The notes under the pieces were generated by a model, which was given only the letters and a program-made list of their open reading frames with translations, was not told where the DNA came from and ran no database searches. Shown piece by piece: positions 32,336-32,546 of a DNA stretch of 53,486 bases; positions within the stretch are counted from its first letter, which is position 1; each line of letters begins with the position of its first letter. Position numbers and translations under genes: made by a program. The stretch is from Patescibacteria group bacterium. Lineage in GTDB: Bacteria; Patescibacteriota; Doudnabacteria; UBA920. The stretch lies in contig JAMDAY010000035.1 in NCBI GenBank assembly GCA_023484515.1, positions 1 through 53,486 of the forward strand, read 5' to 3'.

Positions 32336-32546
32336 AAATCATTAATCGTTGATCCGAAAGGATTCTTCCCGTAAGGGAATGACGCTAACAACGATTTTGT
32401 GCTATACTAAGCGCGTAAAAGGTCCAACGCTTTTTACACCGTTTGTAGTGCATCCCTATAGGGACGTTCTACGCCCTTTGTCCGCGAAAGCGGGGTAAAG
32501 GAACGCACAAATCCCCGTTGATTAGCGTCACGGGGATTTTGTGTAT
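32336..32546 (+). ncRNA. Structured integrase leader RNA (unknown class)
   Basis: Multiple GNRA-capped hairpins, a three-way junction, and long-range complementarity between 32380-32393 and 32516-32530. Confidence 0.55.

Follow-up and report, generated by a model that had tools for sequence, protein, structure and literature searches.

Directly upstream of a tyrosine integrase gene (positions 32547..33491, 314 amino acids) in a Patescibacteria genome lies a structured leader RNA (32336..32546, running from its predicted start up to the integrase ATG), in which a single strand of the 5′ domain, segment A, is complementary to a segment, A′, in the loop of a terminator-like hairpin next to the gene. 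The stretch analysed (contig JAMDAY010000035.1 of assembly GCA_023484515.1, 53,486 nucleotides; hereafter the window) is an entire contig, the source genome is 1.3 Mb and 97.8% complete, and all features described here lie on the + strand unless stated otherwise. The same architecture precedes related integrases at 19 distinct loci, where A and A′ vary yet stay complementary, and we regard the conserved RNA structure as very probably real. The structure is well supported; for the mechanism, which we infer, we consider it roughly an even call that these leaders form a new family of pseudoknotted attenuator or leader RNAs regulating integrase in cis in temperate phages and mobile elements of Patescibacteria.

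The leader had been noticed in an original prediction as a highly structured, switch-like RNA on the integrase gene, and that observation is confirmed. The fold of 32330-32560 has a minimum free energy (MFE) of −82.1 kcal/mol, compared with −57.8 ± 4.4 in 200 dinucleotide shuffles, none of which was as good (z = −5.52; the reverse strand of the leader folds with z = −4.24). The 5′ domain (32344..32396; MFE fold and covariation) is closed by the stem P1 (32344-32351 with 32389-32396), which encloses two hairpins found both in the MFE fold and by RNAalifold, P2 (ATCC-GAAA-GGAT with a GAAA loop, 32352-32363) and P3 (TTCCC-GTAA-GGGAA with a GUAA loop, 32366-32379), together with segment A (TGACGCTAA, 32380..32388), the 5′ pseudoknot strand, which joins P3 and the 3′ strand of P1 with no linker on either side. 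Three middle hairpins follow, at 32415-32437, 32445-32472 (containing TCCC-TATA-GGGA, with a UAUA loop) and 32475-32501 (containing CCGC-GAAA-GCGG, with a GAAA loop); their number and sequence vary among relatives, with compensatory changes between the window and locus L010 (for example, TCCC/GGGA to CCAC/GUGG). The last element is the terminator-like hairpin T (32505..32544; stem 32505-32517 with 32531-32544, 13-nt loop 32518-32530, U-run 32537-32540), and A′ (TTAGCGTCA, 32522..32530) lies within its loop. On its own, T would have a 6-nt loop, because a conserved TGA on the 5′ side of the loop (32519-32521 in the window) can pair with the TCA of A′, as RNAalifold indicates; A, which consists of TGA plus 6 nt, is able to take over these three TGA:TCA pairs. 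Within the window, TGACGCTAA occurs exactly twice, at 32380 (+) and 32522 (−), against an expectation of 0.30, and none of 100 shuffles reached two occurrences.

Most of the previously described fold held up. P1, the GAAA and GTAA hairpins, the TCCC/GGGA and CCGC/GCGG stems and the final stem all lie where they had been placed, and T does, in the window, span the ribosome-binding region, stopping 2 nt short of the ATG. A long hairpin proposed at about 32398-32452 gave way to other hairpins in the same region, the MFE fold showing a weak one at 32399-32414 and a 9-bp one at 32415-32437 instead, and a proposed 14-nt long-range pairing is reduced to its 9-nt core (TGA plus 6 nt), which recurs and covaries, while its CAACG/CGTTG extension is absent from L023 and imperfect in L007, so that the longer pairing is confined to the window and its closest relative. 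The statement that this is not a known riboswitch also stands: Rfam 15 gave no match anywhere in the window at gathering score, and relaxing the threshold to E values up to 10 for 32150-32700 returned five chance-level matches, the best of them rimP, whose 20.6 bits fall short of the gathering score of 47. Nor do the leaders look like riboswitches, with P1 enclosing zero, one or two hairpins, junction nucleotides unconserved except for the TGA, and no riboswitch match.

To place the leader in its family, we drew on a collection of 128 relatives of the integrase protein, with scans contributing 43 integrase loci from metagenomes and 79 from viral contigs, and inspected the 300 nt upstream of 25 integrase starts. 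The leader architecture was present in 20 of these 25 regions (17 distinct sequences) and, in addition, on two viral contigs of 34-38 kb (L084 and L085), giving the 19 distinct leaders, whose integrases are 29-86% identical to that of the window and come from Patescibacteria genomes, metagenomes and viral contigs; the leader is thus a conserved structured RNA physically tied to tyrosine integrase. In its 5′ part, the shared plan comprises a TTGACA-type promoter, P1 with up to two small hairpins (often with GNRA loops), and A, 7-11 nt long and directly 5′ of the 3′ strand of P1, except in L085, where A lies in a hairpin loop. In its 3′ part, a TGnTATAAT box is followed by a variable number of hairpins and then by a GC-rich hairpin with a T-run and A′ in its loop. 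Downstream of the integrase, by contrast, the genes differ, being the host genes hrcA and grpE (L023, L022 and L029) or early genes of phages, ERF/YqaJ (L021) and Rad52 (L014), and L017 is a Zot-plus-Rep element; since the flanking genes differ, we regard the leader–integrase pair as one module that is found in different mobile elements. Few species genomes have an integrase of this family (4 of the 146 genomes of the order with P0001 at E ≤ 1e-40, and 3 of the 401 genomes sampled from the phylum with the family profile at E ≤ 1e-60). Searches with the leader DNA by blastn gave no match in phage and plasmid collections and two short chance-level matches in 60 related genomes, and a pattern scan of viral contigs for hairpins of the L023 type returned the L023 sequence itself. 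No leader was seen at distant integrase paralogs, and at L009/L055 (34% identical integrases) an open reading frame lies directly upstream of the integrase and the plan is not matched.

The long-range A:A′ pairing is supported as real and covarying by several comparisons of the sequences. Examples of the variation among loci are the A/A′ pairs TGACGCTAA/TTAGCGTCA (the window), TGACGGAAA/TTTCCGTCA, TGACGCGAA/TTCGCGTCA, GACGCAAA/TTTGCGTC, GACAACAA/TTGTTGTC, GATGCGAC/GTCGCATC, TGTATGACCA/TGGTCATACA, GGTTTCGC/GCGAAACC, GGGTTCCAC/GTGGAACCC, GGATTACG/CGTAATCC, TCTTACGG/CCGTAAGA, GCTATGAG/CTCATAGC, GTTACGG/CCGTAAC and GTTTGGGT/ACCCAAAC. To avoid circularity, the two partner regions were set independently of the pairing: the 5′ domain was taken as the 100 nt before the internal −10 box, and candidate A′ segments were hairpin loops, with 4 nt on each side, from the 3′ part folded alone. 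Complementarity of at least 7 nt was found in all 18 cognate pairs and of at least 8 nt in 16 of the 18, compared with at least 8 nt in 15 of 306 non-cognate pairs (among which are several combinations of relatives with a common A) and in 69 of 3,600 comparisons with shuffled 5′ domains. The longest complement anywhere in 320 nt did not separate cognate pairs from shuffles. A stricter scoring restricted to loop positions was dropped, as the fold closes TGA:TCA across the loop.

Covariation was counted in a model-guided alignment of the eight alignable members. There, 95.2% of the cells of the pseudoknot helix are paired and five of its nine pairs show double-sided changes, with one column pair taking four pair types (AU, GC, UA and CG); double-sided changes also occur in three of the four inner P1 pairs and in two pairs each of P2 and P3. 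Over the whole structure, 77.2% of cells are paired, versus 67.7% on shuffling (none of 500 shuffles reaching the observed value) and 37-53% when the structure is slid by 1-3 columns, and RNAalifold recovers P2, P3 and T unaided. The geometry is that of a pseudoknot (in the 10 members for which a search returned the true pair, no nucleotide separates A′ from the 3′ strand of T and 0-4 nt remain on the 5′ side), and matched changes in A and A′ separate even close relatives (two of nine pairs between the window and L010; one of eight between L023 and L037).

Signals for transcription frame this structure. Upstream of the leader is a sigma-70-type promoter (TTGACA-16-TAGAAT, 32302..32329) that agrees with the consensus at 11 of 12 positions and predicts a start near 32336; by a strict rule, a TTGACA-like −35 and a TAnnnT −10 occupy the equivalent place in 13 of the 19 members. 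Between A and A′, 18 of the 19 members carry an extended −10 box (TGnTATAAT), in the window TGCTATACT at 32400..32408, where ATGACG (32379) can serve as the −35 (ATGACG-18-TATACT, TG present). This box, overlooked in the original prediction, alters the likely logic of the leader, as it is probably a second promoter whose transcripts would lack A. At the other end, T has the make-up of an intrinsic terminator, as predicted from sequence, with CCCCG/CGGGG extended by an A/U stem and UUUU at 32537-32540, and a GC-rich stem with a T-run is present in all 19 members; a simple terminator scan missed T because its loop exceeds the 8-nt limit of the scan. T ends 2-30 nt before the ATG in most members, with a distance of 13-31 nt counted in 14 of the 19, and lies 114-127 nt upstream of it in L016, L017 and L020. 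Since T is terminator-like in all members and far upstream in three, transcription attenuation is at least as likely as translational control.

From these features, a mechanism can be proposed for the leader as a cis-acting attenuator. The strong upstream promoter would start a transcript near 32336, which would first fold P1 with its two small capped hairpins and display A as a 9-nt single strand; after the variable hairpins, T would act both as an intrinsic terminator and as a cover of the integrase ribosome-binding region, and A′ in its loop would pair with A to form the long-range pseudoknot. T might thereby keep integrase expression low through termination and start-site masking, and the A:A′ contact could alter the fate of the transcript by way of termination, translation or cleavage. 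Because the second promoter lies between A and A′, transcripts started upstream could form the pseudoknot and those from the internal promoter could not, so that what the contact does would be set by the origin of the RNA, at one promoter or the other or in upstream read-through (from late or lysis genes), and integrase synthesis would follow the state of the element. The contact could either raise or lower integrase output, since the pseudoknot involves no more of T than its loop and uppermost 3 bp.

Several observations weigh against this proposal. A pseudoknot confined to so small a part of T (its loop and uppermost 3 bp) might leave termination and masking unaffected, which makes its regulatory consequence conjecture, and no ligand pocket is evident, given that little of the unpaired sequence is conserved and that P1 encloses anywhere from zero to two hairpins. 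By the strict rule, the upstream promoter is missing in 6 of the 19 members, including L016, L017 and L020, and the internal −10 box is missing in L084. The covariation rests on eight aligned sequences that include close pairs, and a covariance model built from these eight seeds (R1) recovered only the seeds themselves among 67 sources, leaving the family without an overall alignment. The linkage has gaps as well: the leader is absent from L011, whose integrase is 58% identical, while L014, L015 and L083 match the plan only as variants, and L026 and L030 are not counted among the loci that fit it.

The enzyme served by the leader is a tyrosine recombinase by its PF00589 catalytic domain (E = 1.4e-31), its match to the phrog_1 integrase family (9.5e-41) and its R-K-H-R-H-Y residues, of which R143, K168, R237, H260 and Y270 are invariant among 42 relatives and H234 is at least 90% conserved. 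The Pfam match is restricted to the catalytic domain (residues 107-275), residues 1-106 have no match, and at 314 amino acids the integrase is a short, Xer-like enzyme. The 3′ end of an rpsI-like gene appears to serve as its attachment (att) site. The 17-nt sequence CAGTGGGCAAAGCGTTA (reading ...QWAKR-stop) occurs as a direct repeat at 33838-33854 and 42772-42788, and the same sequence with one mismatch ends an open frame (...PQWAKR-stop) on another contig, C6 (L164, G000:C6:50759-50775), which we take, by its C-terminal motif alone, to be the true S9 gene. Homology between the window and L010 ends inside the first copy, and the two copies flank an 8.9-kb low-GC island encoding RadC, two Dam-like methylases, an AlwI-like endonuclease and an AAA_13 protein; in the related genome L007, a SIMPL gene directly follows the integrase, without the island. 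From this arrangement, CAGTGGGCAAAGCGTTA is probably the integrase attachment site, with the island inserted there. Three other loci (L023, L037 and L022) share a common junction, ...CCGCCACAGTGGTC, which reads PQW.

A promoter-like sequence downstream of the integrase (TTGCAA-17-TAAGAT, within 33727-33905) points across the att repeat to a terminator-like hairpin at 33862-33905, and in the L023 group (L023, L037 and L022), at about 3880-4015, a comparable −10 box that reads outward precedes the junction, together with two GCCACAGTGG repeats. The motif AAACGTCTAATAT occurs at 32272-32288 (− strand), just upstream of the leader promoter, and at 35086-35100 and 36072-36089 inside the island, and the stretch 36044-36141, before a methylase gene, is 81% identical to DNA 3′ of the integrase in the unrelated element L017 (L017:4020-4115).

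The attachment sites bear on the more speculative suggestion of the original prediction, a recombinase-associated guide or cofactor RNA, for which we found no support. At the junction shared by L023, L037 and L022, A differs (GACGCTAA, GACGCAAA and GACAACAA, respectively), and the window and L023 have the same A and different att sequences. Complementarity between leader and att sequences is at chance, the longest stretch being 7-8 nt and most shuffles of the att stretch reaching at least 7 nt, and the window holds 13 A-like sites at no more than one mismatch, against 9.4 expected. Because A is not tied to the att site, leader and att are not complementary beyond chance and the window has no A-like sites in excess of chance, a role in DNA site choice is unsupported; a bridge-RNA-like guide was accordingly rejected, and the evidence excludes a role as a guide to the att core. 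One 14-mer at 43460 that matches with one mismatch was considered as a target of A′ and, lying inside the SIMPL gene, was judged a chance match.

Among other explanations, the main rival to cis regulation is a same-strand antisense ‘immunity’ RNA, to which we assign a low but appreciable probability. The terminated leader, or a short RNA running from the internal promoter to T, would be a stable small RNA that acts in trans, its exposed loop A′ pairing with A, and with a downstream copy of A where there is one, on other transcripts of the same or an incoming element, and the A/A′ variation would, with the same modest likelihood, make the specificity differ from phage to phage, in the manner of P1/P7 c4 and P4 CI. 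Consistent with this, A and A′ differ even between the close relatives compared above while remaining complementary, the predicted promoter and terminator delimit a discrete small RNA, and L085, with A in a hairpin loop, has a kissing-loop arrangement. In L016, L017 and L020, moreover, a third copy of A lies 42-75 nt downstream of A′, in the integrase 5′ untranslated region, matching the layout of upstream site, loop and downstream site known from P1 c4 and P4 CI. That downstream copy, however, is found within 3 kb in just 3 of the 19 members and is absent from the other 16, whereas the upstream site is present in all 19, and the count of A-like sites in the window is no higher than chance would give. 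The variation in A:A′ needs no explanation beyond ordinary drift of a structural helix, since neither P2 nor the middle hairpins evolve clearly more slowly. Less likely is a role in binding integrase. That the leader serves the recombinase as cofactor, decoy or directionality factor seems to us rather improbable, although the RNA–integrase adjacency is kept across 29-86% protein identity and unrelated element backbones, the enzyme is short and Xer-like with a Pfam match to its catalytic domain only, and the helices are joined without linkers. Where P3, the A:A′ helix and T meet, the RNA might look like a branched DNA intermediate, which could underlie such binding. Adjacency is just as expected of a cis-regulator, and the independence of A from the att site and the chance-level leader–att complementarity both speak against such a partner. 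Slighter again is the prospect that integrase binds the RNA as a functional partner beyond any regulation of its synthesis, by mimicry of a branched intermediate or by setting the direction or timing of recombination; if true, this would be the first RNA-dependent tyrosine recombinase module.

Because inverted repeats next to a recombinase gene might instead serve as operators or as sites of recombination, we tested whether the element acts as RNA or as DNA. In all 19 members, the MFE of the + strand is lower than that of the − strand (the shuffle procedure in this comparison being approximate), the 41 tetraloops include 16 GNRA and 3 UUCG loops versus 2 of the reverse-complement types, and G-U pairs outnumber A-C pairs in stems by 14 to 4. 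This strand asymmetry in loops and wobble pairs points to RNA rather than DNA. As for a DNA-level element, less likely than the antisense RNA, we consider it very improbable that the tyrosine recombinase inverts a promoter-bearing segment between A and A′, in the manner of fimS and other invertons, or that A and A′ are twin repressor operators. Inverted repeats of 7-11 bp do flank a promoter-bearing segment beside the recombinase gene in 18 of the 19 members, and recombination would keep such repeats identical, mimicking covariation, but the segment has a single, identical orientation in all 19 distinct leaders. The repeats are just 45-46 bp apart in L012 and L084, a spacing too short for DNA looping; A′ always sits within a hairpin loop, flush with the 3′ strand; the helix of L029 is extended by a U-G pair, a match that identity of DNA repeats would not give; and P1, P2, P3 and T covary independently of the repeats. 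The strand-asymmetric signals, again, favour RNA. Contigs from four DNA runs, mapped over 29000-46000, contained no strand-switch joint at 32380-32530, which is weak evidence against inversion because contigs drop rare forms; one of the runs (X3) gave no cover across 32402-34102. As a separate observation, contigs of run X2 break at 32330/32336 and at 32682, with a depth of 5.5 on the leader and the 5′ end of the integrase gene compared with 15.6 and 33.4 on the flanks, and alternative leader alleles may coexist in that sample.

Beyond the leader and its integrase, named relatives of the window proteins belong to Patescibacteria/Paceibacterota, and only about 22-34 kb of the window looks phage-derived, positions 1-21 kb carrying host genes (GroEL, peptide deformylase and sugar enzymes). 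Lysis-type genes lie upstream of the leader, encoding CHAP in the window and PG_binding_1 or Peptidase_C1 in relatives. Immediately upstream is a small gene (31909-32181, its stop at 32181) for a Cys/His-rich protein of 90 amino acids, also present at L012:64-147 and L019:221-305. Its first 85 nt have 76-79% nucleotide identity in L012, L013 and L019, and since this exceeds the conservation of the integrase itself (about 67%), the gene may belong to the same module. On the other side, a gene for a small helix-turn-helix (HTH) protein (33488-33697, a weak HTH_23 match) overlaps the integrase stop and has a promoter of its own (TTGACT-17-TATACT). With its probable ATG (33528) only about 10 nt beyond that promoter, the mRNA would be nearly leaderless; the protein may be a regulator or an excisionase. 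Distant integrase paralogs (profile E of about 1e-55; L057, L061, L063, L065, L070, L074, which is on contig C24 of the window's own genome, and L081) follow the 3′ end of a 16S rRNA gene, as identified by Rfam for L074 and L070 and by the motif CCTCCTTTCT for the others, and none has the leader. Some genomes hold tandem arrays of these 16S-adjacent paralogs, for example five copies at G110:C4 349-379 kb.

Control of integrase governs the entry of a temperate phage or island into a genome, its persistence there and its exit. To our knowledge, such control is almost wholly unstudied in Patescibacteria (the candidate phyla radiation), and we know of no host among them yet cultured alone. An RNA family that is supported by covariation and stands ahead of the integrase thus offers a handle that can be tested in a heterologous host, and the family is suited both to submission to Rfam and to use as a metagenome marker of integrase modules. 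In the literature, we found nothing on structured RNA before tyrosine integrases in Patescibacteria, nor on a layout with a promoter-dependent terminator pseudoknot, and the part of 10.64898/2026.10.21.760802 that was available mentions neither integrase nor tyrosine.

Among known systems, P1 c4 and P4 CI are same-strand antisense immunity RNAs with a layout of upstream site, loop and downstream site. The leader resembles P1/P7 c4 and P4 CI in being a small structured RNA on the same strand as its sites, with loops that pair short leader sites, and in that related elements differ by matched changes in both partners. It differs in serving an integrase rather than an antirepressor or replication operon, in its hosts, Patescibacteria phages, in that most members have the upstream site only, and in lacking any sequence or fold similarity to them. 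The ZTP riboswitch, for its part, joins pseudoknot partners across a variable linker. Like it and like terminator attenuators, the leader links a 5′ domain to a 3′ hairpin by a pseudoknot over a variable linker, with a terminator directly before the gene; in contrast to them, it has no conserved ligand-binding core and no Rfam match, it carries a promoter inside the linker, and its pseudoknot uses the terminator loop, with no competition for a terminator strand. In phage lambda, sib lies downstream of int and acts through RNase III. Common to lambda int/sib and, on the mechanism proposed here, the leader would be promoter-dependent integrase expression and a full structure in one transcript type only, whereas the leader structure lies upstream of the integrase. 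With invertible promoters of the fimS and Bacteroides type, the leader shares short inverted repeats that flank a promoter by a tyrosine recombinase gene, and it departs from them in its one orientation (19 of 19), its spacing of down to 45 bp and its RNA-strand features.

Two comparisons concern structured RNAs next to recombinase genes. In a related Patescibacteria genome, a LOOT RNA (RF03000, 60.8 bits) lies at L070:2393-2521, directly downstream of the 16S-adjacent integrase paralog. LOOT, which the available portion of the main text of PMC5737381 does not discuss, is likewise a structured RNA of unknown function adjoining a Patescibacteria tyrosine integrase; it differs from the leader in having four simple hairpins with no similarity to the leader, in accompanying a different integrase clade after the 16S rRNA gene and in having no match in the window. 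The bridge (seek) RNA of IS110/IS1111 elements is, according to the part of PMC11208160 available to us, a structured non-coding RNA of about 200 nt directly upstream of the recombinase gene, and the leader, too, is a structured RNA of about 200 nt immediately 5′ of a mobile-element recombinase gene. The partner of the leader, however, is a tyrosine integrase (PF00589 only) and not the DEDD_Tnp_IS110 plus Transposase_20 enzyme, A does not covary with the att site, and the variable segments pair with each other rather than with target and donor DNA. The leader is thus of a known kind, either a pseudoknotted leader/attenuator RNA or a same-strand antisense RNA, and what is new is the RNA family itself, its linkage to integrase, the pseudoknot with the terminator loop and the internal promoter. 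Beside the bridge RNAs, it represents a second kind of structured RNA at recombinase genes, for which the evidence here favours regulation over guidance.

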